A stretch of DNA of 64,000 nucleotides from Shigella phage SSG23: the sequence record PQ351811; one strand, 5' to 3'. The notes beneath the pieces were generated by a model. The model was not told the origin of the DNA. It made no database searches and saw only the letters and a list, made by a program, of their open reading frames with translations. Shown here piece after piece: positions 24,668 through 43,424 of this stretch. The position numbers and the translations under genes were made by a program. Numbering within the stretch: position 1 is the stretch's first letter; each line of letters begins with the position of its first letter.

Positions 24668-26467
24668 TCACCCAAGATCAATACGGCTACCATCAATTTT
24701 AACTGTACCCGATGCAATATCTTTAACGCTTGCACCACAATTACGGGACCAGTCACCATTAACCTGATCTGATTTAGTACCATTGACGGTCATGTTAAAA
24801 TTACCCTCAACGGTTAAATCATAGTTACCTTTAATTGTCTCGGTAGTATTACCCTCGATCATTAATTCAGCATTGCCCTTGACGTTAGCCGTCAAATTAG
24901 CGTCAAGTTGTGCGGTAACATCACCGACAACATGCATATTAGCTGTACCTTCAACTGTCTGATTAACATTGCCACGAATAAATTCAGTGACGTTACCATC
25001 AACGGTTTGCATCACATTACCCATATAATAAACTTGCGCGTCACCTTCAACAACAACTTGCAGATTGCCTTTAACGTTGACTTTGCGGCCTTGCTTAACG
25101 ATCAAATAATCATCACCTTCAATCTTTTCTACCCTCGTTCCGTCCGGTCTGGTTTCTTCAAATGTACCAGAAGGATGTTTGCGATGATAACGCTCGTGAG
25201 AAGGAGTATCATCAATCTCGATAATATGACCGCTCTCTGATTCGTATACGTGGTTATATGGATACCTTGCAGAATACGAACTCTTAGGCTCTTTAAACAT
25301 GATTCGTGTGTCTTGTGGGGTAAACGGTGCTTCTGGGTCTTCTTCTGCTCTCTGCGTCTTATAGGCAGCAATACGGGCGTTTCTCAAACGTGCTCGCGGA
25401 TCATCAGAAACAGATTCCTCTTTCTTAGGAGCAATTACGCCATATGATTCTAAGTTACCAGTTAAAATAATTTTAGATACACGGCTTGAACGTCCTGGAG
25501 TTTGATTAGCCCATACTGATTGACGTAATCCATCATAGGCTTGTTTCCATTCTTCCGCCAGCATTGCAGCAAGACTATTCTTAAATTTACCCAATCCGCC
25601 AACACCCATTTGAAACGCCATATTTTCTAATGCCATACGACGCGAGGCATTACATTTATTATAGACAGGTGCAATTCGTGGATGTTTGCGCATATCACGA
25701 CGAGTCTTTTCTATATCGTCAGCAAATACTTTACTAACTTCTTCGGCGGTAAGTCTTCCGTTTGTAACTTCACGCCCTACCAGCTTAGAAAGTTCATTAT
25801 TGATAATACCCAGATCACTGGTTTTCTTATAAATGATCAAATGCCCGATGCCTATTGTCGGATATCCTTCTGAATCAAGATACCATTTCTCGCGATATCC
25901 CTCATCGCCCCGCAGCATTTTTTCTATTGTGTATTCTGGGTTATCGTCAACCGGAATTTGATCTAATGGCTCGTCGTCTGGATTTACGGCAACTCCAGTG
26001 TTTTCATCTCGAATATAGACACTATCAGGTTTTGTTGTTTGTCCGGTTTCTGGGTTAATACCGCCACGGGCAAGAATATTAACATCATTACCAATATAGC
26101 GCGGGTATGCACCAGAAGGGTCGCAAAAACCTTCTGTAGTGAGTGGTTTCTCTGTATATTGTCCGGCAATAGTACCCAGAATAACGCAGTTTAAATAACG
26201 TTCATCTAAGGCCAAACCAAATACCATTGAACCTTCAACAATACCAGTAGGGCTTTGACCTATACCGGAGATCGCCGCGCTTGTAATATCTTGTACTGGC
26301 GTAATCCATAATAGATCTTCGGTTGGAAGACCTTGAATGTCACCGTGTGCGGATAGCGAAGGATGTATACCATGAATCCTAACCTGAACTCGGCCTAACA
26401 TTAATGGGTCTTCCCTGTTTTCTACAATTCCGGTAAACCATTTAACGGAGTTATTAAACATTAGCAT
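24668..26467 (-). CDS. gp5: baseplate hub + tail lysozyme gp5
   Basis: 599 aa; lysozyme motif GYPTIGIGHLI (cf. T4 lysozyme YYTIGIGHLL); C-terminal VxGNxxxx beta-helix repeats. Confidence 0.85.
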   Translation of the reverse strand: MLMFNNSVKWFTGIVENREDPLMLGRVQVRIHGIHPSLSAHGDIQGLPTEDLLWITPVQDITSAAISGIGQSPTGIVEGSMVFGLALDERYLNCVILGTIAGQYTEKPLTTEGFCDPSGAYPRYIGNDVNILARGGINPETGQTTKPDSVYIRDENTGVAVNPDDEPLDQIPVDDNPEYTIEKMLRGDEGYREKWYLDSEGYPTIGIGHLIIYKKTSDLGIINNELSKLVGREVTNGRLTAEEVSKVFADDIEKTRRDMRKHPRIAPVYNKCNASRRMALENMAFQMGVGGLGKFKNSLAAMLAEEWKQAYDGLRQSVWANQTPGRSSRVSKIILTGNLESYGVIAPKKEESVSDDPRARLRNARIAAYKTQRAEEDPEAPFTPQDTRIMFKEPKSSYSARYPYNHVYESESGHIIEIDDTPSHERYHRKHPSGTFEETRPDGTRVEKIEGDDYLIVKQGRKVNVKGNLQVVVEGDAQVYYMGNVMQTVDGNVTEFIRGNVNQTVEGTANMHVVGDVTAQLDANLTANVKGNAELMIEGNTTETIKGNYDLTVEGNFNMTVNGTKSDQVNGDWSRNCGASVKDIASGTVKIDGSRIDLG

Positions 26468-28680: not shown

Positions 28681-28869
28681 AAGAAGTCCTCGTATAGTAC
28701 CCGTTTTATTTATTACTGTATAAAAATATAGTTATTGGTTAAAACATAACCAAAACGAAGAAAGATCTTTAGAATAATAAAAATTTGTTTCGGTTAAAAA
28801 GTAGTCAGTGCCTCCGGCACGTCGCAAAGCGACAATTGTTAATAAATATTTTCATTTGAGGAATCGAAA

Positions 28870-29460
28870 ATGTCCAATCTCTTTAATTATGCTAACCCTA
28901 GCAACTGGCAGATTGCCATTCCAGATGGTCAACTAACAAAAGGCTTTACTTTAAATGCTCAAGGTGTTACACTTCCGGCTATAACCATTCCACCGACTAA
29001 ACAAGTTGCTGGTCAATATGGTTTGGCGGTCGCTGATTATCCTTCCAGTCATGTAGAGTTTGACCCGTTGGTAGTCCGGTTTATTGTCGATGAGCATTTG
29101 GAAAGCTATCTAAATCTTTACACATGGATGCTTTCTATAGTAGACTACAATAACGGTAACTCCACCGCGTGGAAGGATTCAATGCCGGAAGCCGTTCAAG
29201 TTCACATGATGGACAATGAACGCCGTAACATTGTATGCACCTTTAACTTTTATGGTTGTTGGTGTTCACAATTGGGGGAACTTGAGTTAACATACACCGA
29301 TGATATGCATGAATCTCTGGTGTGTACTGCAATTCTTCCATTTAAAACAATGAGCATTGAACGTGATGGTCAACTGATCGTTCCTCGCCCAGCAATTCAG
29401 GCGGCGGATCGTCAGCGAGTGGAAGGAATTAAAGCTATGCACCCTGCTTTTAGAAAGTAA
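28870..29460 (+). CDS. gp3: tail tube terminator / tail completion protein gp3-like
   Basis: 196 aa (T4 gp3 176 aa) between gp2 and gp1 as in T4 order 1-3-2-4. Confidence 0.55.
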   Translation: MSNLFNYANPSNWQIAIPDGQLTKGFTLNAQGVTLPAITIPPTKQVAGQYGLAVADYPSSHVEFDPLVVRFIVDEHLESYLNLYTWMLSIVDYNNGNSTAWKDSMPEAVQVHMMDNERRNIVCTFNFYGCWCSQLGELELTYTDDMHESLVCTAILPFKTMSIERDGQLIVPRPAIQAADRQRVEGIKAMHPAFRK

Positions 29461-34294: not shown

Positions 34295-34477
34295 ATGAAA
34301 AAGATTAATTGGTTAGCGAACATAGGCGCGGTATGCGCCTTTAACATCCTCGGATGGATAATGTTACATTTTGATGATCGCGTTTCAAAATGTGAAGGTG
34401 GATTGATTCTAGGATCTGCTAGTGTTTTCATTATGCTGTATGCAATTATAGTTGACTTAAACCGCGAGGATTGTTAA
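34295..34477 (+). CDS. small membrane protein
   Basis: 60 aa, hydrophobic. Confidence 0.5.
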   Translation: MKKINWLANIGAVCAFNILGWIMLHFDDRVSKCEGGLILGSASVFIMLYAIIVDLNREDC

Positions 34478-34478
34478 T

Positions 34479-34679
34479 ATGAAAATTAATAATAGTGCCA
34501 TCAGATTTTCGAGCGTATATGCTAGTTTCATTGCGCTGGTCTGTATGTTTGTTTTTATTCCTGTTGTACTTCTTGGATATTGTGATATTGAAGTAGCATT
34601 GATTGCTGGGATCTATATGTGGGTTGCGGTCTTTGTTCTTTCAATTGTAATGTGCAAGATTATTGACTATACTGATTAA
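34479..34679 (+). CDS. small membrane protein
   Basis: 66 aa, two hydrophobic helices. Confidence 0.5.
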   Translation: MKINNSAIRFSSVYASFIALVCMFVFIPVVLLGYCDIEVALIAGIYMWVAVFVLSIVMCKIIDYTD

Positions 34680-34697
34680 CTGTGTGAGGATTATATT

Positions 34698-35018
34698 ATG
34701 AGCAAACTGTTTGAAACTCCGCGCGAAATTCTGATTGATAAACTGAAAGAGCGTGGTTTTAAGATCAAAGATGCAACCAAATACAGCAGAATTGATGAAA
34801 TTAAGTTGCATTCTCTTGATGAACTGGTAGAATATGTTGCGGCAGTGGCTGATCCGCAGTTTGATGTTATTGTAGGTGACGTTGAATATCTCGATAATGT
34901 ATATTCATTCTTCACTTATGGTAAAATTGTGTCTGTGAAAATTTCATTCTGTGAAAATGTGGAGGTACTTGCTAGTGAACCAGAAGAACCAACTAACAAC
35001 GGTCCTACGGCAGCGTAA
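34698..35018 (+). CDS. hypothetical protein
   Basis: 106 aa, after TGTGAGGATTATATTATG translation-initiation motif. Confidence 0.5.
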   Translation: MSKLFETPREILIDKLKERGFKIKDATKYSRIDEIKLHSLDELVEYVAAVADPQFDVIVGDVEYLDNVYSFFTYGKIVSVKISFCENVEVLASEPEEPTNNGPTAA

Positions 35019-35289
35019 CAAGGAAGACCGCCTGATTTATGCGCTGGCTGTTATCCTAGAAAAAGAATTACCGGATCTTGAGGTAGTCTTTACTGACAGA
35101 CCAGTAGGCCAACGTTACGGCGGATATGATAGCCTAGTTTATCCTTCATATAGCCTTGAAATGTGGGTAGAAGATTTTAAAAACCTGGCTGATACATCTA
35201 AACCGCTTTATCTATGGGATGTTGAGTATAATTGCGATCCTAACTGGCCTGGTATTAATGTTTATGCGTCTATGACTTTGAAGGTGTGA
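34951..35289 (+). CDS. hypothetical protein (start uncertain; may begin at GTG near 34975)
   Basis: 112 aa ORF overlapping previous gene; GGAGG RBS upstream of an in-frame GTG. Confidence 0.4.
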   Translation: MKMWRYLLVNQKNQLTTVLRQRNKEDRLIYALAVILEKELPDLEVVFTDRPVGQRYGGYDSLVYPSYSLEMWVEDFKNLADTSKPLYLWDVEYNCDPNWPGINVYASMTLKV

Positions 35290-35291
35290 TA

Positions 35292-35450
35292 ATGATTGAA
35301 CAAATGTTAACTGCAACGGTAATGGCTTTCTGTATGGTTGTTGTTATGATTGCAATGATCCCTAAAGAGAGAATGAGTCTTCTTGTCGCTGTCTGTGTGG
35401 GTGTTGTTTGCGGATGGTTTGGAATCGCTTTAGAACAAGCTCTGCGTTGA
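35292..35450 (+). CDS. small membrane protein (52 aa)
   Basis: Short hydrophobic ORF below track cutoff, starts 2 nt after previous stop. Confidence 0.4.
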   Translation: MIEQMLTATVMAFCMVVVMIAMIPKERMSLLVAVCVGVVCGWFGIALEQALR

Positions 35451-35511
35451 TTAACAAAGCGGGTAGGGGAATGTACTACCCGCACTAAATTAGCTAACTG
35501 GAGGGCTTTCT

Positions 35512-35700
35512 ATGGCGTTTTATCTATGGTTGATTATAGTATGCTTTGTGCTGGGGTTGTGCTTCTATACTGGCGTATTCTGTTTGATTGGCTGGATAAA
35601 CGGAGGATTCTCTAGTATCATTTTGCTTGCCGGATCAATCGCCTCGTTTCTGTTGATATGGCTTTTTTCTTATTTGTTTGGTGAATGGGATTTATTATGA
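35512..35700 (+). CDS. small membrane protein
   Basis: 62 aa, two TM-like helices. Confidence 0.5.
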   Translation: MAFYLWLIIVCFVLGLCFYTGVFCLIGWINGGFSSIILLAGSIASFLLIWLFSYLFGEWDLL

Positions 35701-35876
35701 ACAAATATATGTTTTGGGCGATCCTTGCCTATGTTGTGATTGCGGTAGTCTGGGGACTCTGTGTTATTGTCGCTTCCCTGATCTGGTGGGAATCACTTGG
35801 CGTGGGTTGCTTGATTAGTGGTGCATCCTCTCTTATTATGGGTGTGATTGTTGGGTTTCTTGTGTCGGGGGATTGA
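35685..35876 (+). CDS. small membrane protein
   Basis: 63 aa, hydrophobic, overlapping neighbours. Confidence 0.5.
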   Translation: MGFIMNKYMFWAILAYVVIAVVWGLCVIVASLIWWESLGVGCLISGASSLIMGVIVGFLVSGD

Positions 35877-36094
35877 CAATGGTTTTCTTCGGTCTTATTA
35901 TAATGGTGCTTAATGTCATTTGTGGCGTTGCTATGTTAGCTATGGCCTTTACTGTTCCTATGTCTGTTGATAGCGCCGCATCCGTAGGCGTGTTGGGAAT
36001 TGTAAACCTGTTTACCGCCCTAGCATGTTGGATCACCGGACGAGATGAGGTAATGTATTACTTTTATAAACGTAAACAGAGAAAAGGAAAATAA
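35873..36094 (+). CDS. small membrane protein
   Basis: 73 aa, hydrophobic, basic C-terminus. Confidence 0.5.
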   Translation: MTMVFFGLIIMVLNVICGVAMLAMAFTVPMSVDSAASVGVLGIVNLFTALACWITGRDEVMYYFYKRKQRKGK

Positions 36095-36095
36095 T

Positions 36096-36287
36096 ATGAG
36101 ATTTGCATTTGGTTTTACCGTGATGTTGATTATTGCTCTGAGTATGTGTACCGGAATGCTTGTATTTGGTCTTGCAAACGGATTTAGCATTTATAATGAT
36201 CCGTGGGTTGATTGGGGGATGGTTGCTGTTAATGCGATCCTGATTGGTGCTAATACAAGAACTCTATGCAGGATCACAGGAATCTAA
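36096..36287 (+). CDS. small membrane protein (holin candidate by position)
   Basis: 63 aa hydrophobic protein directly upstream of the endolysin gene. Confidence 0.4.
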   Translation: MRFAFGFTVMLIIALSMCTGMLVFGLANGFSIYNDPWVDWGMVAVNAILIGANTRTLCRITGI

Positions 36288-36315
36288 ATATTATCACTCA
36301 CAAAGGGGGTGAATA

Positions 36316-36705
36316 ATGTTTAAATTATCTAAAAGAAGCAAAGATCGGCTTGTTGGCGTACATCCAGACCTGGTAAAAGTCGTTCATCGTGCATTAGAAC
36401 TGACTCCGGTCGATTTTGGTATTACGGAAGGTGTGCGTAGTCTAGAAACGCAAAAGAAATATGTTGCGGAAGGTAAATCTAAGACTATGAAATCTCGTCA
36501 TCTTCACGGTTTCGCGGTTGACGTTGTAGCGTATCCTAAAGATAAGGATACATGGAACATGAAATATTACCGCATGATCGCTGATGCATTTAAACAAGCT
36601 GGTCGAGAATTGGGTGTTCCTGTTGAATGGGGTGGAGATTGGACCAGTTTCAAAGATGGTCCTCATCTACAATTGCCACACAGCAAATACCCAGATCCAA
36701 AATAA
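36316..36705 (+). CDS. endolysin, peptidase M15 (L-alanyl-D-glutamate peptidase / VanY-like)
   Basis: 129 aa; SRHLHGFAVDV and DGPHLQL motifs typical of zinc D,D/L,D-peptidase M15 fold; no signal peptide. Confidence 0.75.
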   Translation: MFKLSKRSKDRLVGVHPDLVKVVHRALELTPVDFGITEGVRSLETQKKYVAEGKSKTMKSRHLHGFAVDVVAYPKDKDTWNMKYYRMIADAFKQAGRELGVPVEWGGDWTSFKDGPHLQLPHSKYPDPK

Positions 36706-36767
36706 AATATTAACCATCAACGGGGAGACAATCTAAGGATCTCTCCCCGTTCACTGGAGACTTTACC

Positions 36768-37253
36768 ATGAATATTGATGTAAAATTAGAAAGTAAAGAT
36801 TTGATTTATGCTGCGTGTGTATCTGCCGTAAATGGCATCATAGAACGCCGTAAGCGACGCAATTTTGCTGATGACCTAGATTCCATAGTCTCAATCAATT
36901 TAGGCCGTCAGACAGGGCATACAGACGCTACAATCAAGTTATATGACCATTATACGCGAAAAGGCTATAGTGTCTTTATCGTTTCAACGACGCGGGAACA
37001 TGCCAAAACGATCCGAGATCGCGGTCGCGGTGAAAATGTCAACATTTCAAATGTAGATTGCACGTCGATCCGAACTTTCCTGAATCCGATCACTTGGCGA
37101 GGTCGTAGTCTTGACAAAACAATTTTTATCCTAGATACTACCATGCGCGGATTTACTGACAGCGTATTGCAGTTTTTAGAGTTAAATCGACTTAGTGTTG
37201 GGATGGGTAATGTAGAAGACCAACCTATTTTCATTGGCTTAGGTATCAACTAA
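36768..37253 (+). CDS. hypothetical protein
   Basis: 161 aa ORF with GGAG RBS. Confidence 0.5.
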   Translation: MNIDVKLESKDLIYAACVSAVNGIIERRKRRNFADDLDSIVSINLGRQTGHTDATIKLYDHYTRKGYSVFIVSTTREHAKTIRDRGRGENVNISNVDCTSIRTFLNPITWRGRSLDKTIFILDTTMRGFTDSVLQFLELNRLSVGMGNVEDQPIFIGLGIN

Positions 37254-37378
37254 TGAAAAATAAAGATAGCGTAGCTCGTCGATTCCGTGCTACAATCAAT
37301 AAGAATCGTAAAGTCCAACCTGATAAACTCTATGGGGTTTTGGTTGGAAAAGTTAATGACGAACGTCCTGATCTATAA
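37253..37378 (+). CDS. possible small basic protein (41 aa)
   Basis: Short ORF in the gap before GrcA, start overlapping previous stop (TAATG); unsupported otherwise. Confidence 0.25.
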   Translation: MKNKDSVARRFRATINKNRKVQPDKLYGVLVGKVNDERPDL

Positions 37379-37390
37379 AAGAGGTGAATT

Positions 37391-37807
37391 ATGGAATTTA
37401 AAGCAATTCAAATCATGAAAGGTGAGCATAAAGGTACTATTATTGGTGGACACTTCGCGCCTATGATTCTGGTATCCGAACCGAAAGCACTGATCGGCGC
37501 TAAAGTAATTGTTAGTAAAACTTTCGCAGAAGACCATGTGATCACCGCAGAAGACGTCGATTCGCTGGAACTGCACACAACTAGCTTCCGTCCTGTTGTT
37601 GTAGATAATGGTGCTCCGGTTGTCGAAGGTGGTCAACACCTAAATGTTAACGTATTGTTACGAGAAATGTTGCTGGACGCGGTTGAACATCCTGAGAAGT
37701 ACCCGCAGCTTACAATTCGCGTTTCTGGTTACGCAGTGCGCTTCAATAGTCTGACTCCAGACCAGCAGCGTGACGTGATCGCGCGTACCTTTACCGAATC
37801 TCTCTAA
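37391..37807 (+). CDS. grcA: autonomous glycyl radical cofactor GrcA (YfiD-like)
   Basis: 138 aa; C-terminal [12 protein letters not shown]...[35 protein letters not shown], glycyl-radical motif RVSGY; as I recall it, near-identical to E. coli GrcA. Confidence 0.9.
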
Positions 37808-37817
37808 TTTTTCATCA

Positions 37818-37849
37818 AGCCAATCCGAAAAGGGTTGGCTTTTTCTTTA
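37818..37849 (+). terminator. rho-independent terminator
   Basis: Hairpin AAGCCAATCCGAAAAGGGTTGGCTT followed by TTTTCTTTAT. Confidence 0.75.
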
Positions 37850-37893
37850 TAGTGTGATACGATGCAATCTCTTAATCAACTGAGGGTTTAATT

Positions 37894-38592
37894 ATGCATA
37901 CAATGGTTAAAATGGTCTTTGGATCTCACTTATACGGCCTTGATACTGAAAATTCCGATAAAGATTATCGTGGTATCTTTGTTCCAACTGCGAAAGAAAT
38001 TATCTTAGGATCGATGAAAGAACACTATGACCAAAGCACTAGCGGTCAAGGTATCAAGAACACCAAAGACGATATTGATGTTAATATGTTCAGTCTAAAA
38101 AGGTTTATCAACCTGGCATGTAAAGGTGATATTGGCGCTATTGACATTGTGCACGCGCCTAGTAACATGTTGATTGAATCCTCCAGAGAATGGGAATACA
38201 TCCGAACACATCGCGATAAATTCTATCATGTTGGTATGTGGGGTTGTTCTGGCTATCTCAAAAAGCAGGTAGCCAAATCTGAAAAGTATTTCAGTAACTG
38301 GAAAGATCTTTCTCATGCTCTGCGTGTTGGTTATCAGCTACTTGAAATCTATCAGACAGGTGATCTACAATTCCCACTCGCTCGACGTTCTTCTATTTTA
38401 GCGTGTAAGTTAGGAGAAAGAACCTTTGATAATGTGCGGGAAGAATTGAAAGATCTCTACGAACGTGTTAAACTCGCGCGTGAAGAGGCAAAGAAAAACG
38501 GGATGCCAGAAGAACCAGATGTTGACTTTTGGAAAGATTTATTAGAATATATTCATCTGACCGTTGTTCTTGAACACTATACCCGTGGTTAG
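37894..38592 (+). CDS. pol-beta superfamily nucleotidyltransferase-like protein
   Basis: 232 aa; N-terminal GSHLYGLDTENSDKD fits the GS-x(9-13)-D-x-D nucleotidyltransferase signature. Confidence 0.55.
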   Translation: MHTMVKMVFGSHLYGLDTENSDKDYRGIFVPTAKEIILGSMKEHYDQSTSGQGIKNTKDDIDVNMFSLKRFINLACKGDIGAIDIVHAPSNMLIESSREWEYIRTHRDKFYHVGMWGCSGYLKKQVAKSEKYFSNWKDLSHALRVGYQLLEIYQTGDLQFPLARRSSILACKLGERTFDNVREELKDLYERVKLAREEAKKNGMPEEPDVDFWKDLLEYIHLTVVLEHYTRG

Positions 38593-38613
38593 TTAATATA
38601 GGAGATTAATAAA

Positions 38614-38808
38614 ATGCAAGTTTATACCAATAGCAATAAAGGACAAGATATTACGCCCGGAAAGATGTATGATTTTACCCCGGCACGAGACGACGAAAAT
38701 CCACCGACAATCGGTTACATCAAAGATGATATAGGTTATCGTATTACGATACTTCTTGATGGTGGATGTTCTCATCTTCGCGGTGATAAATGGGAGTTAG
38801 TACCATGA
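38614..38808 (+). CDS. hypothetical protein, YGYIKDD paralog 1
   Basis: 64 aa; shares TPxKxYxFTP...GYIKDD...CSHL motif with next two ORFs. Confidence 0.5.
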   Translation: MQVYTNSNKGQDITPGKMYDFTPARDDENPPTIGYIKDDIGYRITILLDGGCSHLRGDKWELVP

Positions 38809-39050
38809 TGTATGTTATGACACCTTATAGTAGTAGATCTTACATCACCCCAAATAAACTGTATAAGTTTACGCCAGATGAAAGAATGTCTACCTACGGT
38901 TACATCAAAGATGATAAAGGATACGAACTTTTTATTTCTCTGAAAAGTTGTGCATACCTTGATGACCGTCCGTGGACACTGATCGAAAAACCAAAACAAC
39001 CTGAGAATAAAGGTCTTTGGAATGTGCTAAAAAAATTCTTGAAAAAGTAG
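38805..39050 (+). CDS. hypothetical protein, YGYIKDD paralog 2
   Basis: ORF 38790-39050 trimmed to ATG overlapping previous stop (ATGA). Confidence 0.5.
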   Translation: MMYVMTPYSSRSYITPNKLYKFTPDERMSTYGYIKDDKGYELFISLKSCAYLDDRPWTLIEKPKQPENKGLWNVLKKFLKK

Positions 39051-39079
39051 TTGACAGCATGAAACGGGGGTAGTAATAT
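39051..39079 (+). promoter_or_regulatory. early promoter cassette P6 with palindromic spacer
   Basis: TTGACA, spacer with GGGGGTA/TACCCCC palindrome, TAATAT, then CATCGAAACAACAACGGAGTATTAAAATG. Confidence 0.6.
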
Positions 39080-39110
39080 ACCCCCATCGAAACAACAACG
39101 GAGTATTAAA

Positions 39111-39449
39111 ATGAGTGTTAAAGAAGTGTTTGTTTATACCGACTATGACGGGTGCGCCTATATCACCGCCGGAAAACTTTACCGATGTGAAATTATTCAT
39201 GGTACATTAGGTCGAATTATGTGCGATCCGGTTACAAAATTGTGGAAAAGCAATCCTAGTGAGCGAGAAACTCTTATTAACCTAGATCCAGACGGTTGTT
39301 CACATTTGGACTATAGAAAATGGCATATCGTGACACATGATGCTTATGGTATTCATCTTGCTACTAAAGAATTAACTATAGAGAAATTCAAGTTTAAAGA
39401 AATCCCGTTTGTATACTGGCTTCGCAATTTGTTCAAGAAAGGAGAATAA
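39111..39449 (+). CDS. hypothetical protein, YGYIKDD paralog 3
   Basis: 112 aa; AGKLYRCE...DPDGCSHLDYRKWHIV resembles the preceding two ORFs. Confidence 0.5.
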   Translation: MSVKEVFVYTDYDGCAYITAGKLYRCEIIHGTLGRIMCDPVTKLWKSNPSERETLINLDPDGCSHLDYRKWHIVTHDAYGIHLATKELTIEKFKFKEIPFVYWLRNLFKKGE

Positions 39450-39450
39450 A

Positions 39451-39873
39451 ATGGAAACAATTAATGTACATGTTCGTCGTAGCAAGCTGCGTCGATTCTT
39501 CGAAACTGAAATGCGCAAAACTAATGCACAGATCAAAGAAAAGTGCTTGAATGATGGTTACGGTGAGTATATTTTCATTCGCTTTAGTCCGCATATGATC
39601 GACCGTCTAACCGATCGTCATATCGATGAACATAAGACAATGGAACTATTCAATAAGGTAGAAACTCGTTTACCTGAGATCTTCAAGTTCTTGAAAATGG
39701 AAGACCGACCTAACCGACTAGAAATCACTGACGGTAACATGTGGATCGGGATGACAGTAGATCTAATCGAAGACGGTAAACCGTATTACGGGCTATGCTG
39801 CCGAATGATTATAGAGAATCCAAAGCGACTGGCGGGTAAAATGTCGGCGGTTGTTTTGAAAGTGGACCAATAA
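39451..39873 (+). CDS. hypothetical protein
   Basis: ORF 39409-39873 trimmed to ATG after AAGGAGAATAAA RBS. Confidence 0.5.
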   Translation: METINVHVRRSKLRRFFETEMRKTNAQIKEKCLNDGYGEYIFIRFSPHMIDRLTDRHIDEHKTMELFNKVETRLPEIFKFLKMEDRPNRLEITDGNMWIGMTVDLIEDGKPYYGLCCRMIIENPKRLAGKMSAVVLKVDQ

Positions 39874-39895
39874 TGGAAATTGGTTAAATTAATGC

Positions 39896-39923
39896 TTGAC
39901 TTTCTGGTGATAGGGCTATATTA
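39896..39923 (+). promoter_or_regulatory. possible promoter (TGCTTGACT ... TATATT)
   Basis: TTGACT with a 15-16 bp spacer to TATATT upstream of the secreted SLT-like gene; spacing suboptimal. Confidence 0.35.
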
Positions 39924-39958
39924 TGGAATCAGAAAGTTAAGCCAAACAGGAGAAATTG

Positions 39959-40549
39959 ATGTTAAAAGTTCTAAAAGCGATAGTATTGAGTCTGTCACTA
40001 GCCGTTGGTGCTACACACGCATCGACTAGCGCACCGATCAAAAAAGCGCCGATAGACAACTTTACAGCACACCAACTAGATAATTTACATTTCGCCTATC
40101 AATACGGTGAGCAATTCGAGAAAAGCGGTAAGTTGAAAAATGACCATCCGAATATTCGCTATAACGGAAAGGGTTTAGGTCACATCCTGGCGGGTATCGC
40201 ATGGCAAGAATCAAGCGCGGGTGCAAACTTAGCACCAAAGAAAAATCATCATGCTTATGGATTATTTCAAAATTACCTTAAAACGGTGAAAGCGAAAAAT
40301 GCAAAGCGCGGTGTTAAAATGAGTGATCGCCAGACTATCAACTTTATCATGAATCGCGAGGTTTCTGCATTCTACGCGATGGATGAGTTAGCATACTGGC
40401 TGGATGTTCGAAACGGTAATATTCGACTCGCGCTAGCTTCTTACAATGCAGGATGGAACTATAAAGCCGGGTTAGGTTATGCTGATGACGTACTAAAAAA
40501 GGCTAACCATCTAAAGAGTAAAGGCATTCTTAAAACTAAACGCTATTGA
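39959..40549 (+). CDS. secreted lytic transglycosylase-like protein (SLT domain)
   Basis: N-terminal signal peptide (LSLAVGATHA); AWQESS...GLFQ resembles the SLT catalytic ES...GLMQ motif. Confidence 0.55.
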   Translation: MLKVLKAIVLSLSLAVGATHASTSAPIKKAPIDNFTAHQLDNLHFAYQYGEQFEKSGKLKNDHPNIRYNGKGLGHILAGIAWQESSAGANLAPKKNHHAYGLFQNYLKTVKAKNAKRGVKMSDRQTINFIMNREVSAFYAMDELAYWLDVRNGNIRLALASYNAGWNYKAGLGYADDVLKKANHLKSKGILKTKRY

Positions 40550-40556
40550 GGAATCT

Positions 40557-40916
40557 ATGAAAAAGTTGACAGTAATTGCTATGATTGCTATGATGCTCTC
40601 GGCTGGTGCGCTTGCTAGTAATGAGCGCCCTTATCCAAAGTTCGAATACAAAGGGTTTGAGATCAACAAAAAGATCATTAAAACCTTCTGTGATAATGAT
40701 AACATGTGTAGCGATTTTATCGCACTTGAACTTGACGAAGCGTACAAACAAGGTCGAGACGAAAAACGAAAAAATCGAGCGTGGGATCTAAGTATTGCCA
40801 GCTTTGCTAAAACAAAACGTAACTTGTGTGATACTGCCCCGGATAAGCAATTGTGTTTTGCATATCGTGACACACTGTTAAGCCGTTTTATGGCTGGGTT
40901 GTCTTCCCGTGACTAA
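40557..40916 (+). CDS. secreted hypothetical protein
   Basis: 119 aa with N-terminal signal peptide (MKKLTVIAMIAMMLSAGALA), Cys-containing. Confidence 0.5.
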   Translation: MKKLTVIAMIAMMLSAGALASNERPYPKFEYKGFEINKKIIKTFCDNDNMCSDFIALELDEAYKQGRDEKRKNRAWDLSIASFAKTKRNLCDTAPDKQLCFAYRDTLLSRFMAGLSSRD

Positions 40917-40931
40917 TTAGAGGTTTATATT

Positions 40932-41387
40932 ATGATTATTGATACTGTAAAGGGCGATCTCATCGCCCTGTTTAAACAAGGAAACGGTCATTTAATTCAT
41001 GGTTGTAATTGTTTTCATACTATGGGCGCTGGTATTGCTGCGGATATCGCAAAAGAGTTCCCGCAAGCGTTAGAGATTGACAAGCAAACTTCTCGCGGTA
41101 AGGTAGAAAAGCTGGGTGGGTTTAGTGTCTGGACGCATCAAGTTAATGGTTATAACTGGTGTGGGGTGAATCTCTATACCCAATTCCGACCGGGTCCAAA
41201 TGCTGAATATAGTGCTATCCTGAAAGGATTTGAGTCTCTCAATGATGTTTTTGAAGGTGCTATACAGCCTTTCTATATTCCTAAAATCGGTTGCGGTATC
41301 GGTGGCCTTGAGTGGGAATGCGTAGAAGAAATCATTAATATTGCTACTCCAGATATCAATATTGTGGTGGTTGAATATGGCAAATAA
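40932..41387 (+). CDS. macro domain protein (ADP-ribose binding/processing)
   Basis: 151 aa; HGCNCFHTMGAGIA and KIGCGIGGL glycine-rich motifs characteristic of macro domains. Confidence 0.65.
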   Translation: MIIDTVKGDLIALFKQGNGHLIHGCNCFHTMGAGIAADIAKEFPQALEIDKQTSRGKVEKLGGFSVWTHQVNGYNWCGVNLYTQFRPGPNAEYSAILKGFESLNDVFEGAIQPFYIPKIGCGIGGLEWECVEEIINIATPDINIVVVEYGK

Positions 41388-41571
41388 AAATGATCTATAT
41401 TCCGGCGATTGGGTTAAACGTCAGACTGTAGAAAACGTAACTTGTTTTCGTTGTTTCACTGAATACAATATAAAAACCGCTCCTGTTAGTGTTCCAAAGA
41501 CAGACGGGTATTATATTAAAGAACCGCATTGCCCTAAATGTAAATGTCGATTATATTGGAGTCATCTATGA
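41377..41571 (+). CDS. small zinc-ribbon protein
   Basis: ORF trimmed to ATG; CFRCF...CPKCKC (two CxxC pairs). Confidence 0.45.
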   Translation: MANKNDLYSGDWVKRQTVENVTCFRCFTEYNIKTAPVSVPKTDGYYIKEPHCPKCKCRLYWSHL

Positions 41572-41786
41572 AGAAGCCTAATACCGCTCACATGAAGGAA
41601 AACTGCCGATGTGGTAGATGTGGTTGGCCTATTATCTTCACTTGCTGTAACGACGATATGCAGCGTTTACCGTGGGGAATGTGGGATTGGTGGATGTATT
41701 GCAGCAATAAAGGATGTATTCACCATGAAGGCGAAGGAGTGTTTCAAGAAACGCCTGATTGGGTGGAGGTGATAGAAAATGCTTGA
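41568..41786 (+). CDS. small Cys-rich (zinc-binding) protein
   Basis: ORF trimmed to ATG after GGAG; CRCGRCGW...CCNDD...CSNKGC. Confidence 0.45.
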   Translation: MKKPNTAHMKENCRCGRCGWPIIFTCCNDDMQRLPWGMWDWWMYCSNKGCIHHEGEGVFQETPDWVEVIENA

Positions 41787-42072
41787 GACTATCATTAACC
41801 TTGTTATGTGGACTTTTAATTTCGTTATTGTTATTATTGCGGGTATTGAGATCGTCAAGCAATATCTGTTACAATCCAGAAATAAACATGTTGTAATTGA
41901 TATGGATTCTCAAGGAAATAAGCTGATCCTGCTAGAAGACGGTCGGGAATATTGGGTAGGTTATCCAAAGACACTACGCGGATTTATCTTTGCTATGGGT
42001 GTTTGCTTCTTTTTCCTTTGTATCTGGGTTTATGTTGGTTTAGGTCTTGCTGGATTTTTGGAGATTAATTAA
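41779..42072 (+). CDS. small membrane protein
   Basis: 97 aa, two hydrophobic helices. Confidence 0.45.
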   Translation: MLETIINLVMWTFNFVIVIIAGIEIVKQYLLQSRNKHVVIDMDSQGNKLILLEDGREYWVGYPKTLRGFIFAMGVCFFFLCIWVYVGLGLAGFLEIN

Positions 42073-42668
42073 TGGCTCAACTATATTTCTACTATGCATC
42101 TATGAACGCTGGCAAATCAACTTCCCTGCTACAAAGTGCTTATAACTATACCGAACGTGATATGCGAGTATTAATTCTTAAACCAGCGATTGATAATCGT
42201 GATTCAGATAGTGAAGTTGTTTCCCGAATTGGTCTAAGTGCTCCAGCGATCACCTTCACTAAATCGGATGATCTTTTCGATTTGGTTTATCGTGAATCAC
42301 TGGGTAAGCGTAGACCAGATCGCTGGCGTCCTGATGCTGTATTTGTAGATGAAGCCCAATTTATGACTAAAGAACATGTTTTAGGCTTATGTGCACTGGT
42401 TGATGATGCCAATATCCCTGTTTTGTGCTATGGCCTTCGCACTGACTTTAAAGGCAATCTATTTGAGGGATCTGCGGCATTAATGGCATTGGCTGATAAA
42501 CTGGTTGAAATGAAGGGTATTTGTCATTGCGGTAAGAAAGCAACTATGGTCCTTCGCGTAGATAAAGATGGTAATGTTATTCGCGATGGTGCTCAAATAG
42601 AAGTTGGTGCAGAGGATAAATATGTTTCTGTGTGCCGTAAACATTTTATTGACGGAACTACCAACTAA
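42072..42668 (+). CDS. tk: thymidine kinase
   Basis: 198 aa; MAQLYFYYASMNAGKSTSLLQSAYNY... matches the bacterial/T4 thymidine kinase N-terminus and P-loop; C-terminal CHCGKKA zinc motif. Confidence 0.9.
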   Translation: MAQLYFYYASMNAGKSTSLLQSAYNYTERDMRVLILKPAIDNRDSDSEVVSRIGLSAPAITFTKSDDLFDLVYRESLGKRRPDRWRPDAVFVDEAQFMTKEHVLGLCALVDDANIPVLCYGLRTDFKGNLFEGSAALMALADKLVEMKGICHCGKKATMVLRVDKDGNVIRDGAQIEVGAEDKYVSVCRKHFIDGTTN

Positions 42669-42736
42669 GAGTTAATCATAAATAAAGCCCCAGATTATAA
42701 ATATAACTGAATATTTTCAATCTGGGGGAATGACTT

Positions 42737-43039
42737 ATGTCATTTATTCGTAAAACTCTAACAGCGGCAATATGCTTGACTGCGGTCGGAAGTGTCAGTG
42801 CTGATCAATATGATCCAACTGGTGACTTTACTGATTATTTCGACGGTGCAATGATAGTATATGTAAACAAAATATCTCCTTCCATTGAAACCAGCCAGAA
42901 ATTTCATGCCCATATTATGAAGATGTATGCTCGTAGTAAATGTATGGATTCTAAGCAGTGTTTTATTATGGGGGAATATGCCGCAAAACAATTTGTTATG
43001 TTGTATAATGTGGAGAATCGAGAACATGAAATTCAGTGA
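42737..43039 (+). CDS. secreted hypothetical protein
   Basis: 100 aa, N-terminal signal peptide (LTAAICLTAVGSVSA), two Cys. Confidence 0.5.
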   Translation: MSFIRKTLTAAICLTAVGSVSADQYDPTGDFTDYFDGAMIVYVNKISPSIETSQKFHAHIMKMYARSKCMDSKQCFIMGEYAAKQFVMLYNVENREHEIQ

Positions 43040-43424
43040 TTTTCGAAAGACGTCCGAAGAGGGGAAAGCTAATAAAGTTGACCGCTTTATCGGTGAATGT
43101 CTGATGAGTGTTACTTATATGCATTCTGCGCATTTTGGGGTGACTGGTCCAGGATCTTATGCAAAACATAAGGCTCTAGAAGAGTTCTATCTTGAAATGC
43201 AAGAATTGGTTGATAATTTCACTGAAACCAATATTGGGATCACTGGTCGTTATCAACCAACGTTGGTCGTCCGCAAGGAGATTAGCGAAATTGCCTATTT
43301 GCAAGAGTTAACGCAAATGGCTAGTGAGATTTATAATGATGTTGATAGCTCGTTACAGAGCGTTTTAGATGATATCAAAGTTCTATGCTTTAAAACAATT
43401 TATAAACTCACTCGACTGGCTTAA
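43026..43424 (+). CDS. Dps/ferritin-like protein
   Basis: ORF trimmed to ATG after GGAG; HSAHFGVTGPGSYAKHKALEEFY...ELVDNFTE resembles the Dps ferroxidase-site pattern. Confidence 0.45.
   Translation: MKFSDFRKTSEEGKANKVDRFIGECLMSVTYMHSAHFGVTGPGSYAKHKALEEFYLEMQELVDNFTETNIGITGRYQPTLVVRKEISEIAYLQELTQMASEIYNDVDSSLQSVLDDIKVLCFKTIYKLTRLA

Follow-up and report, generated by a model that had tools for sequence, protein, structure and literature searches.

The DNA of Shigella phage SSG23 (sequence record PQ351811; the window analyzed here is a 64,000-nt stretch of it) encodes a cytoplasmic-type M15 peptidase and, downstream, an exported SLT-like protein, raising the question of whether the two constitute lysis machinery of a non-T4 kind or serve separate ends. 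The window is a Krischvirus genome (an RB49-like T4-type phage). Positions 36000–41500 are 100% identical in DNA to Shigella phage SFHK24, whose record coordinates minus 3341 give window coordinates, and other Krischvirus genomes are 95–97% identical to the window. All open reading frames described in the original prediction are present, and their order and names are common to the window, the RB49 RefSeq record, and T4. Its gene content identifies the region as an RB49-like version of the conserved e–vs–regB–vs.1–vs–tk–rI block, in which the order regB–vs.1–vs–tk.4–tk–rI is the same as in T4. As a whole, it is best explained, with a probability of about 0.8, as an EndoRB49-type true endolysin plus exported Vs.1 and Vs proteins in this conserved block. 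The stretch is essentially ordinary and already annotated: its endolysin has been characterized before, and Vs.1 and Vs also occur in T4.

The M15 protein (129 aa; 36316–36705, + strand) matches Pfam PF13539 (Peptidase_M15_4; E 4.4e-12) with 46.8 bits, where the curated cut-off is 25, and phrog_465 'endolysin' with an E-value of 1e-68. The Zn-binding triad and the catalytic Asp are present as H62-x6-D69 and D114-x2-H117 (D-x-x-H), and these positions are identical in PDB entries 23ri_A and 8q2g_A. 23ri is a solved structure with the EndoRB49 sequence, and the window protein is identical to 23ri_A at 128/129 residues; 8q2g_A, an L-alanyl-D-glutamate endopeptidase, is near-identical along the entire protein (E 1.5e-82). 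K6Q is the sole difference from EndoRB49 of RB49 (NP_891673.1), with which the protein shares genus, genomic slot, and Zn-ligand/catalytic residues, including the studied W109. The window endolysin is an allele of EndoRB49, with nothing of substance different. EndoRB49 is a biochemically characterized L-alanoyl-D-glutamate peptidase with published activity and W109 mutants; it cleaves the L-Ala–D-Glu bond, and on its own it is able to lyse cells and to break down peptidoglycan substrates in vitro (PMC8140593, PMC10487532). The M15C fold and active-site motifs recur in EndoT5 of phage T5 (PDB 2mxz; sequence match E 1.3e-21) and Serratia ChiX (PDB 5opz; E 9.4e-37). EndoT5 is activated by Ca2+ via a mobile loop, whereas EndoRB49 shows no ion regulation (PMC10487532); ChiX is bacterial and serves chitinase secretion rather than phage lysis.

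As originally predicted, the M15 protein carries no signal peptide: a search for a hydrophobic N-terminal segment found none (maximum 10-residue Kyte-Doolittle mean 0.8). With neither a signal peptide nor a SAR domain discernible, and with the holin gene t annotated in RB49, the protein has the makeup of a canonical holin-dependent endolysin. It is best read as the true endolysin of the phage, an L-alanoyl-D-glutamate peptidase that is soluble, cytoplasmic, and Zn-dependent, cuts peptidoglycan peptide stems, and gains access to the wall only after the inner membrane has been opened by the T-type holin. The window also contains the antiholin (lysis-inhibition) gene rI (42737–43039, + strand; phrog_1246 'lysis inhibition', E 2.7e-25), which is annotated in RB49, W115, and GEC-3S; the late-promoter motif upstream of it, TATAAATA at 42696–42703, is exact.

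In T4, the map position of this endolysin, upstream of vs.8–vs.6–regB–vs.1–vs–tk–rI, is held by the e lysozyme (GH24). The two proteins have the same holin-dependent cytoplasmic endolysin role but unrelated folds and different activities, T4 e being a muramidase and the M15 protein an L-Ala-D-Glu peptidase. A tblastn search with T4 lysozyme found one place in the SFHK24 genome, versus two in T4-type genomes. This place is the lysozyme domain of the gp5 baseplate hub (25442–25927, − strand; 28783–29268 in the SFHK24 record, annotated as 'baseplate hub subunit and tail lysozyme'), and no free-standing T4 e-type (GH24) homolog was found in SFHK24 by this search. The view that the peptidase stands in for a T4 e-type lysozyme was thus correct, and the M15 endolysin is a non-orthologous replacement of T4 e.

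The start of the endolysin gene lies in a predicted RNA hairpin (36281–36326, + strand; −13.3 kcal/mol), the upstream arm of which pairs with part of the Shine-Dalgarno sequence and the AUG. None of 200 shuffles was as stable (z −3.8), a statistic that depends on the slice, as a slightly different 69-nt slice yields z −2.0. The region is invariant in W115 and GEC-3S, and because it is invariant among Krischvirus genomes, covariation lends the hairpin no support. Analogous structures that occlude the start precede the genes for M15 endolysins in IME-CF2, Miro, and phiP4-3, and also T4 e, where a comparable hairpin covers the Shine-Dalgarno sequence and AUG and has a late-promoter motif toward its 5′ side. 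In the window, the upstream arm contains TCTAAATA (36283–36290), which departs from TATAAATA at one position and, with this mismatch, is only a candidate late motif compared with that of T4 e. T4 e RNA is made early and its protein late. With the start site buried in a hairpin whose 5′ arm bears a late-promoter-like motif, translation of the window endolysin is probably limited to late transcripts, like that of T4 e.

Directly downstream of the endolysin gene lies a vs.8-like ORF (36768–37253, + strand; phrog_1488, E 8e-39), which is only weakly similar to T4 Vs.8 (26% identity, pairwise E 2e-6) and whose counterpart in the RB49 RefSeq record is named vs.8. It is followed by a gene for an autonomous glycyl-radical cofactor (GrcA, a homolog of T4 vs.6; 37391–37807, + strand; Pfam Gly_radical, 61.2 bits; vs.6 in RB49). 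An intrinsic-terminator-like hairpin (37817–37841, + strand; a 10-bp stem, then a T-run) closes this endolysin–vs.8–GrcA unit, and a terminator is annotated at the equivalent place in GEC-3S. Farther on, the annotated regB endoribonuclease gene (39451–39873, + strand; Pfam REGB_T4, 162.9 bits) is followed by a sigma-70-type, early-type promoter-like site (39896–39924, + strand; TTGACT-17-TATTAT, 10/12 matches) directly upstream of vs.1; GEC-3S has a promoter annotated at the equivalent place. The assignment of the locus to the early region is borne out in so far as the early-gene strand carries these genes and this site precedes the SLT-like gene, the site being a consensus match only. We considered and set aside a pairing of the M15 and SLT-like genes for lysis: they are 3.2 kb apart, with the strong terminator-like hairpin and promoter-like sites between them.

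The SLT-like gene (39959–40549, + strand; 196 aa from ATG; phrog_600, E 6e-60) encodes the window's ortholog of T4 Vs.1, with a predicted signal peptide (residues ~1–21) and a divergent SLT/goose-lysozyme-fold domain. The protein matches Pfam SLT (PF01464) over residues 77–168 (26.2 bits, E 6.1e-6; cut-off 21.3), and PF01464 is precomputed for 9/23 of the Vs.1 homologs listed. The Pfam matches of these two proteins, M15_4 and SLT, exceed their curated cut-offs, and the SLT sequence signal is modest. A goose-lysozyme-like helical fold was recovered, with Foldseek E-values of only about 1e-2, and a search with the Vs.1 family profile matched no PDB sequence. The motifs E84-S85, G101-L-F-Q104, and S161-Y-N-A-G165 correspond to the Glu-Ser, GLMQ-like, and AYNxG-like motifs, and E84, S86, Y100, G101, F103, Q104, S161, Y162, A164, and G165 are invariant in 22 Vs.1 homologs, the pattern expected of a maintained active site.

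Signal peptides were called by an n/h/c-region heuristic (positive n-region, 10–15-residue h-region, small residues at −3/−1, no lipobox Cys) and by conservation of this pattern across homologs. The N-terminus of Vs.1, MLKVLKAIVLSLSLAVGATHA followed by STS, is signal-peptide-like, with K3 and K6, the hydrophobic segment AIVLSLSLAVGA, a THA/S junction, and no lipobox Cys; 21/22 homologs have such an N-terminus, though the segment is unconserved in sequence. The SLT likeness and signal peptide claimed for this protein are therefore both recovered, as predictions. Vs.1 is predicted to be exported by Sec, cleaved after THA21, and freed as a soluble 19.7-kDa periplasmic enzyme whose active site (Glu84-Ser85, GLFQ, SYNAG) resembles that of family 1 lytic transglycosylases.

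T4 Vs.1 (NP_049725.1) is 52% identical to the window protein over the catalytic domain (E 1e-55); both have a predicted signal peptide and lie between regB upstream and vs downstream. The window protein has a spacer between signal peptide and domain that is ~14 residues longer, and vs.1 and vs are separated by a 7-nt gap in the window, whereas they overlap by 8 nt in T4. The vs.1–vs adjacency is shared by T4, RB49, CGG4-1, and ZZ1; the first three also have regB upstream, in place of which ZZ1 has a homing endonuclease. For T4 Vs.1, Nolan et al. (2006, PMC1524935) noted a marginal similarity to SLT in what is otherwise a conserved hypothetical protein, and the SLT-domain idea goes back to 2003–2006 (PMC1524935). 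Against the family 1 lytic transglycosylases E. coli Slt70 (1qsa), MltE (4hjy), and MltC (4c5f) and P. aeruginosa Slt, MltF, and MltD, Vs.1 shows 15–20% structural identity and no sequence-level match to a solved structure. Unlike these enzymes, it is a phage-encoded single domain of ~175 residues, without lipobox, superhelical U/L domains, or LysM. The heading 'non-T4-type lysis enzymes' given to the region by the original prediction fits the M15 endolysin that replaces T4 e but not the SLT-like protein and its neighbor, whose T4 orthologs, Vs.1 and Vs, are encoded in the same gene order and coexist there with the e lysozyme.

Could a secreted transglycosylase nonetheless add the glycan cleavage that a peptidase-only endolysin lacks, so that the M15 and SLT-like proteins form a two-enzyme, non-T4 system for end-point lysis? 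Both proteins, Vs.1 by prediction, act on peptidoglycan, and their genes lie within ~4 kb on the same strand; in Felixounavirus EC6, the vs.1 homolog sits between rIIB and a spanin-containing stretch. However, T4 already has a glycosidase endolysin and also has Vs.1, and vs.1-like sequences are found in 2067 phage records; therefore, Vs.1 does not track endolysin type. The terminator-like hairpin and promoter-like sites between the genes, the middle-phase rather than late appearance of the T4 Vs.1 protein, the dispensability of its gene, and the ability of EndoRB49 alone to lyse cells and degrade peptidoglycan in vitro also argue against such a system, which we regard as highly improbable; nothing in our analysis ties Vs.1 to lysis. 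It is also very unlikely that Vs.1 is catalytically inert, or a purely peptidoglycan-binding or regulatory SLT-fold protein such as a decoy or inhibitor of host lytic transglycosylases. The remoteness of the family from solved lytic transglycosylases and the dispensability of vs.1 would fit an inert protein, as would the record of its activity, which has never been reported: we found no biochemical data on any Vs.1 protein, including 1,6-anhydroMurNAc products, in the searchable literature. Yet the Glu-Ser pair, GLxQ, and (A/S)YNxG are all present, and E84 and most motif residues remain invariant in the 22 homologs down to 40% identity.

We therefore favor an exported, active Vs.1, with both export and lytic-transglycosylase activity standing as predictions. 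T4 vs.1 and vs yield RNA early and protein in the middle phase, and both are non-essential in LB; because of this timing and dispensability in rich medium, a pre-lysis activity is plausible. Made before the late phase and dispensable in the laboratory, Vs.1 would most likely trim or open peptidoglycan locally during infection rather than act in end-point lysis. The proposal of cell-wall remodeling separate from end-point lysis is, on these analogies, a reasonable one.

The Vs ortholog ('valyl-tRNA synthetase modifier'; 40557–40916, + strand; 119 aa) comprises a predicted signal peptide (residues ~1–20) and a small four-helix domain; it matches phrog_1256 (E 3.9e-33), and every homolog has a precomputed PF26829 match. 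Next in the conserved block comes tk.4, for a macro-domain protein (40932–41387, + strand; Pfam Macro, 29.5 bits; phrog_335; tk.4 in RB49). Secretion had been proposed for Vs as well, and its N-terminus, MKKLTVIAMIAMMLSAGALA followed by SNE, is indeed signal-peptide-like by the heuristic, with K2, K3, LTVIAMIAMML, and an ALA/S junction. T4 Vs (NP_049724.1; phrog_1256, PF26829) is only 26% identical but has the same position after vs.1, the same predicted signal peptide, and the same four cysteines; C45, C51, C91, and C100 are invariant across 50 homologs. The AF2 model is helical (pLDDT 76). Vs would thus be a small exported helical protein whose four cysteines probably form two periplasmic disulfides. 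We found no experimental localization data for Vs.1 or Vs.

Vs is labeled as a cytoplasmic 'valyl-tRNA synthetase modifier', yet its export signal is conserved and its four cysteines are invariant, features that point to the periplasm rather than to binding of a cytoplasmic enzyme. The classical description, in which Vs binds the cytoplasmic valyl-tRNA synthetase, clashes with a periplasmic location. If the N-terminal hydrophobic segments were not cleaved Sec signals, at least in Vs, the protein could stay, or also act, in the cytoplasm, where as the classical tau factor it would bind and stabilize the host valyl-tRNA synthetase. The modifier label is attached to phrog_1256 and used in the annotations of RB49 and T4, and the purified T4 factor, described as a peptide of ~10 kDa, has a size that might suit this role. 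The calculated mass of mature T4 Vs after cleavage, 11.0 kDa, equals the reported size, however, so the size argument does not favor an uncleaved form. A translation-related role would also fit the growth defect of the T4 vs deletion, which is specific to minimal medium (preprint 10.1101/2025.11.20.689424). Against it, the n-region, the hydrophobic h-region, and a small −3/−1 site are kept in 49/50 Vs homologs, though the segment is not conserved in sequence, and the four invariant cysteines fit periplasmic disulfides. We consider a cytoplasmic Vs unlikely.

With Vs taken as exported, one may tentatively ask, as a possibility we hold to be doubtful, whether the products of vs.1 and vs make up a two-protein periplasmic module conserved in T4-type phages, in which tightly coupled genes would specify an early- or middle-expressed lytic transglycosylase and a small disulfide-bonded partner or regulator. 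If so, the 'valyl-tRNA synthetase modifier' label, which vs has borne for decades, would be a mis-assignment or would denote a second, non-periplasmic activity, and the minimal-medium phenotype of T4 Δvs would reflect an envelope rather than a translational function.

Over 36000-41500, the window matches Shigella phage SFHK24 (PQ351812.1; subtracting 3341 from an SFHK24 coordinate gives the window coordinate) at 100% identity and 57 further genomes at 95-97%; all of these, SFHK24 included, belong to the genus Krischvirus (Straboviridae) of RB49-like T4-type phages. The GC skew switches sign at ~26 kb of the window, and all ORFs treated here lie on the + strand. The M15 peptidase gene (36316-36705) is followed by a vs.8-like ORF (36768-37253), a 41-aa ORF (37253-37378), the gene for a glycyl-radical cofactor (vs.6/GrcA; 37391-37807) with a strong terminator-like hairpin 3' of it (37817-37841), an NrdC.11-like nucleotidyltransferase gene (37894-38592), three small paralogous ORFs (38614-39449) and regB (39451-39873). 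A sigma-70-type promoter-like site (TTGACT-17-TATTAT, 39896-39924), the equivalent of which is an annotated promoter in phage GEC-3S, separates regB from vs.1, encoding the SLT-like protein (39959-40549). Beyond it lie vs, for a small, predicted exported protein (40557-40916), the tk.4 macro-domain gene (40932-41387), three small ORFs (41378-42072), tk (42072-42668), rI (42737-43039) and rI.-1 (42927-43424). The T4 annotation gives the order e–ipIII–ipII–denV–vs.8–vs.7–vs.6–vs.5–vs.4–vs.3–regB–vs.1–vs, continued by tk.4–tk.3–tk.2–tk.1–tk–rI.1–rI–rI.-1, and the equivalent genes of the RB49 RefSeq entry carry T4's names, with RB49p102 as 'putative endolysin'. The T4-like order and these names argue that the block is an ordinary, previously annotated piece of a T4-type genome; the RB49 reference genome already annotates every feature singled out by the original prediction, and it names the putative endolysin, vs.1 and vs.

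Several other genes of the block have features of their own. Immediately 5' of the endolysin gene, ~8 back-to-back ORFs of 54-73 aa (34295-36287), each hydrophobic over nearly its whole length, are predicted to encode small membrane proteins and are labelled 'putative membrane protein' in W115. The GrcA-like protein, homologous to T4 vs.6, keeps the RVSGYAV motif at its C-terminus and has a ~75-residue N-terminal region outside the Pfam Gly_radical match (residues 78-119). Three consecutive small ORFs (38614-38808, 38790-39050 and 39111-39449), tandem paralogs between the NrdC.11-like gene and regB, each match phrog_6261 and share the pattern '...YxFTP...GYIKDDxGY...'. The rI ORF matches phrog_1246 (E 2.7e-25), is labelled rI in RB49, W115 and GEC-3S, and has an exact TATAAATA late-promoter motif upstream (42696-42703); the SFHK24 record leaves it without annotation and calls a minus-strand hypothetical ORF in its place. 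The macro-domain gene is orthologous to T4 tk.4, which probably encodes AdfM; if so, the block beside vs.1 and vs contains a counter-defence gene. According to a 2025 preprint, AdfM is a macrodomain protein of T4 that serves as an antidote against the DNA ADP-ribosylating toxin DarT2 (10.1101/2025.11.20.689424).

The endolysin is of the EndoRB49 type, already experimentally characterised and with structures solved. The 129-aa protein matches Pfam Peptidase_M15_4 (46.8 bits, cut-off 25) and phrog_465 'endolysin' (E 1e-68), carries the Zn-ligand/catalytic motifs H62-x6-D69 and D114-x2-H117, and has no hydrophobic segment at its N-terminus. It is identical to the RB49 endolysin at 128/129 positions, the sole change being K6Q, and likewise 128/129 identical to PDB chain 23ri_A; 8q2g_A ('peptidoglycan L-alanyl-D-glutamate endopeptidase') matches over the full length (E 1.5e-82), whereas Serratia ChiX (E 9e-37) and the T5 endolysin 2mxz (E 1e-21) are more distant. 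Similarity of the RB49 ORF to D-Ala-D-Ala carboxypeptidases was tabulated in 2006 (PMC1524935). EndoRB49 has been purified, assayed and mutated at W109 by the Mikoulinskaia group; it is a Zn-dependent L-alanoyl-D-glutamate peptidase that Ca does not regulate (PMC10487532; PMC8140593). By tblastn (E ≤ 1e-10), the family occurs in 1258 phage records, including T5-like phages and the T4-type genera Pseudotevenvirus, Slopekvirus and Bragavirus.

In tblastn with T4 lysozyme, T4-type genomes have two matching places; SFHK24 has one, annotated 'baseplate hub subunit and tail lysozyme' (gp5; window ~25442-25927, minus strand). The original prediction of an M15 zinc peptidase endolysin lacking a signal peptide, present in place of a T4 e-type lysozyme, is thus borne out in both parts. 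The M15 gene lies immediately 5' of the vs.8-like gene, which is the position of T4 e once the T4-specific ipIII, ipII and denV are subtracted. The M15 gene is a non-orthologous replacement of e in situ. A T-type holin is encoded by RB49 and the antiholin rI in the window, so that the endolysin would be expected, by analogy with established T4 lysis biology, to act canonically and in a holin-dependent manner.

The endolysin gene is located among rightward 'early-side' genes, and its start is enclosed in a hairpin (36281-36326; -13.3 kcal/mol, z -3.8, with 0/200 shuffles equally stable; z -2.0 when folded from a slightly different slice). The upstream arm pairs with the start codon AUG and with some of the Shine-Dalgarno (SD) sequence, and it contains TCTAAATA (36283-36290), a single mismatch away from the core of T4 late promoters, TATAAATA. 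A transcript beginning ~6 nt 3' of TCTAAATA would lack most of the 5' arm. Late transcripts are probably the main templates for translation of the endolysin, though the motif is imperfect. The exact core, present five times in the window, does not occur 5' of the endolysin gene, so the late-promoter part of this model stays conditional. T4 e likewise has a hairpin over its SD, together with two TATAAATA motifs (L003:8485-8560, minus strand), and is classed as early RNA, late protein (PMC9697503 supplement). M15 endolysin genes of three further T4-type genera (regions L010:1434-1515, L011:1434-1515 and L012:1440-1515) have differing but analogous structures (z -3.9 to -5.2) that contain an (A/G/C)ATAAATA-like motif: in Pseudotevenvirus IME-CF2 and Slopekvirus Miro an anti-SD CCUCUU pairs with the Shine-Dalgarno AGAGG, whereas in Bragavirus phiP4-3 the AUG is covered by a 14-bp stem. 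Among Krischvirus genomes the hairpin sequence does not vary, so covariation carries no information. The logic of translating only from late transcripts appears to have been kept despite the enzyme swap. In the whole window the heptamer CTAAATA occurs in 4 copies, one of them the site inside the endolysin hairpin, whereas dinucleotide-preserving shuffles predict 13.4 ± 3.3; selection against spurious sequences that resemble late promoters may explain this shortage.

We identify the SLT-like protein as Vs.1: it shares 52% identity with T4 Vs.1 (E 1e-55), its neighbours also match, and its profile hits are Pfam SLT (26.2 bits, cut-off 21.3) and phrog_600 (E 6e-60). Among 22 homologs of at least 40% identity, E84, S86, H97, Y100, G101, F103, Q104, N105, S161, Y162, A164 and G165 are invariant and span the Glu-Ser, GLxQ and (A/S)YNxG motifs of family 1 lytic transglycosylases. 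Every top Foldseek match is a lytic transglycosylase, with weak E-values, and sequence searches against PDB chains returned no match, which places the family on a divergent branch. In the searchable literature we found nothing on Vs.1 function beyond Nolan et al. 2006 (PMC1524935), who noted the SLT similarity, and two omics/essentiality data sets; new here are the fold-level confirmation, the invariant catalytic Glu and the predicted conserved export signal. NCBIfam searches with the endolysin, Vs.1, Vs and rI gave no matches.

The N-terminus of Vs.1 reads MLKVLKAIVLSLSLAVGATHA followed by STS and that of Vs MKKLTVIAMIAMMLSAGALA followed by SNE; both have a basic n-region, a hydrophobic core of 10-13 residues and small -3/-1 residues, and neither has a lipobox cysteine. 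Signal peptides were called by this n-/h-region and -3/-1 heuristic plus conservation in homologs. By the heuristic, 21/22 Vs.1 and 49/50 Vs homologs have the export pattern, including those of T4, and its sequence is not conserved. Both exceptions seem to be truncated at the N-terminus: the Vs.1 homolog P0008 starts ~19 alignment columns after the others, and the Vs homolog P0040 is a short annotated start in phage ZZ1 with an in-frame upstream extension that has a hydrophobic N-terminus. Predicted mature masses are 19.7 kDa (pI 9.9) for Vs.1 (residues 22-196) and 11.6 kDa for Vs. In the T4 proteins, cleavage is predicted to follow AHS18 in Vs.1 and ASA20 in Vs.

The third protein is Vs, matching phrog_1256 'valyl tRNA synthetase modifier' (E 3.9e-33) with 26% identity to T4 Vs (L003:2887-3234, minus strand; calculated mature mass 11.0 kDa). 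The vs.1 and vs genes adjoin or overlap each other in T4, RB49, Acinetobacter phage ZZ1 and Salmonella phage CGG4-1; in Klebsiella phage KPV15 a 121-aa hypothetical ORF lies immediately 5' of vs. An AF2 model of Vs shows a four-helix domain (pLDDT 76; residues 50-119 at 87-95), and C45, C51, C91 and C100 are invariant in 50 homologs, for all of which a Pfam scan gave only noise. An exhaustive profile search of 1.84 billion representatives found only 27 relatives, each of 77-134 aa, indicating a small family unconnected to any larger one. The export signal and the Cys quartet together predict a periplasmic, disulfide-bonded protein, which would be hard to square with a factor binding cytoplasmic valyl-tRNA synthetase; we found no discussion of the signal peptide or of this conflict in the searchable literature. 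The predicted signal peptide questions the textbook assignment; the assignment itself, or else where the protein is assumed to act, merits re-examination.

The original prediction of an SLT-like catalytic pattern, a signal peptide on that protein and export of the next one agrees with these data, the export calls being heuristic. Its view of the pair as 'non-T4-type' members of a lysis enzyme set is wrong: both are T4 Vs.1/Vs orthologs with the same neighbours. Nor is Vs.1 a speciality of RB49 that makes up for a peptidase endolysin: tblastn retrieves 2067 phage records with a vs.1-like sequence, T4 among them, across Straboviridae and in Felixounavirus and Ackermannviridae. T4-type phages carry it as a conserved accessory gene. 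In Escherichia phage EC6 (Felixounavirus) the homolog (L005:2501-3049) sits between rIIB and pnk, with an Rz-like spanin a few genes away; in Dickeya phage Ds5CZ (Ackermannviridae) it spans L006:2495-3109. The gene 3' of it is annotated other than vs in both, as polynucleotide kinase and as a hypothetical protein, respectively.

T4 vs.1 and vs fall into the 'early RNA, middle protein' class in time-resolved omics (PMC9697503 supplement) and are non-essential in rich medium by transposon mapping (preprint 10.1101/2025.11.20.689424 supplement); in minimal medium, vs is the most depleted gene (same preprint). By analogy, these T4 data support the original prediction's view of an exported enzyme that would act before, and apart from, end-point lysis. 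The main use of our analysis is to correct the picture of Vs.1, with little else altered; Vs.1 and Vs offer a cheap route to how T4-type phages may act on the cell wall before lysis.
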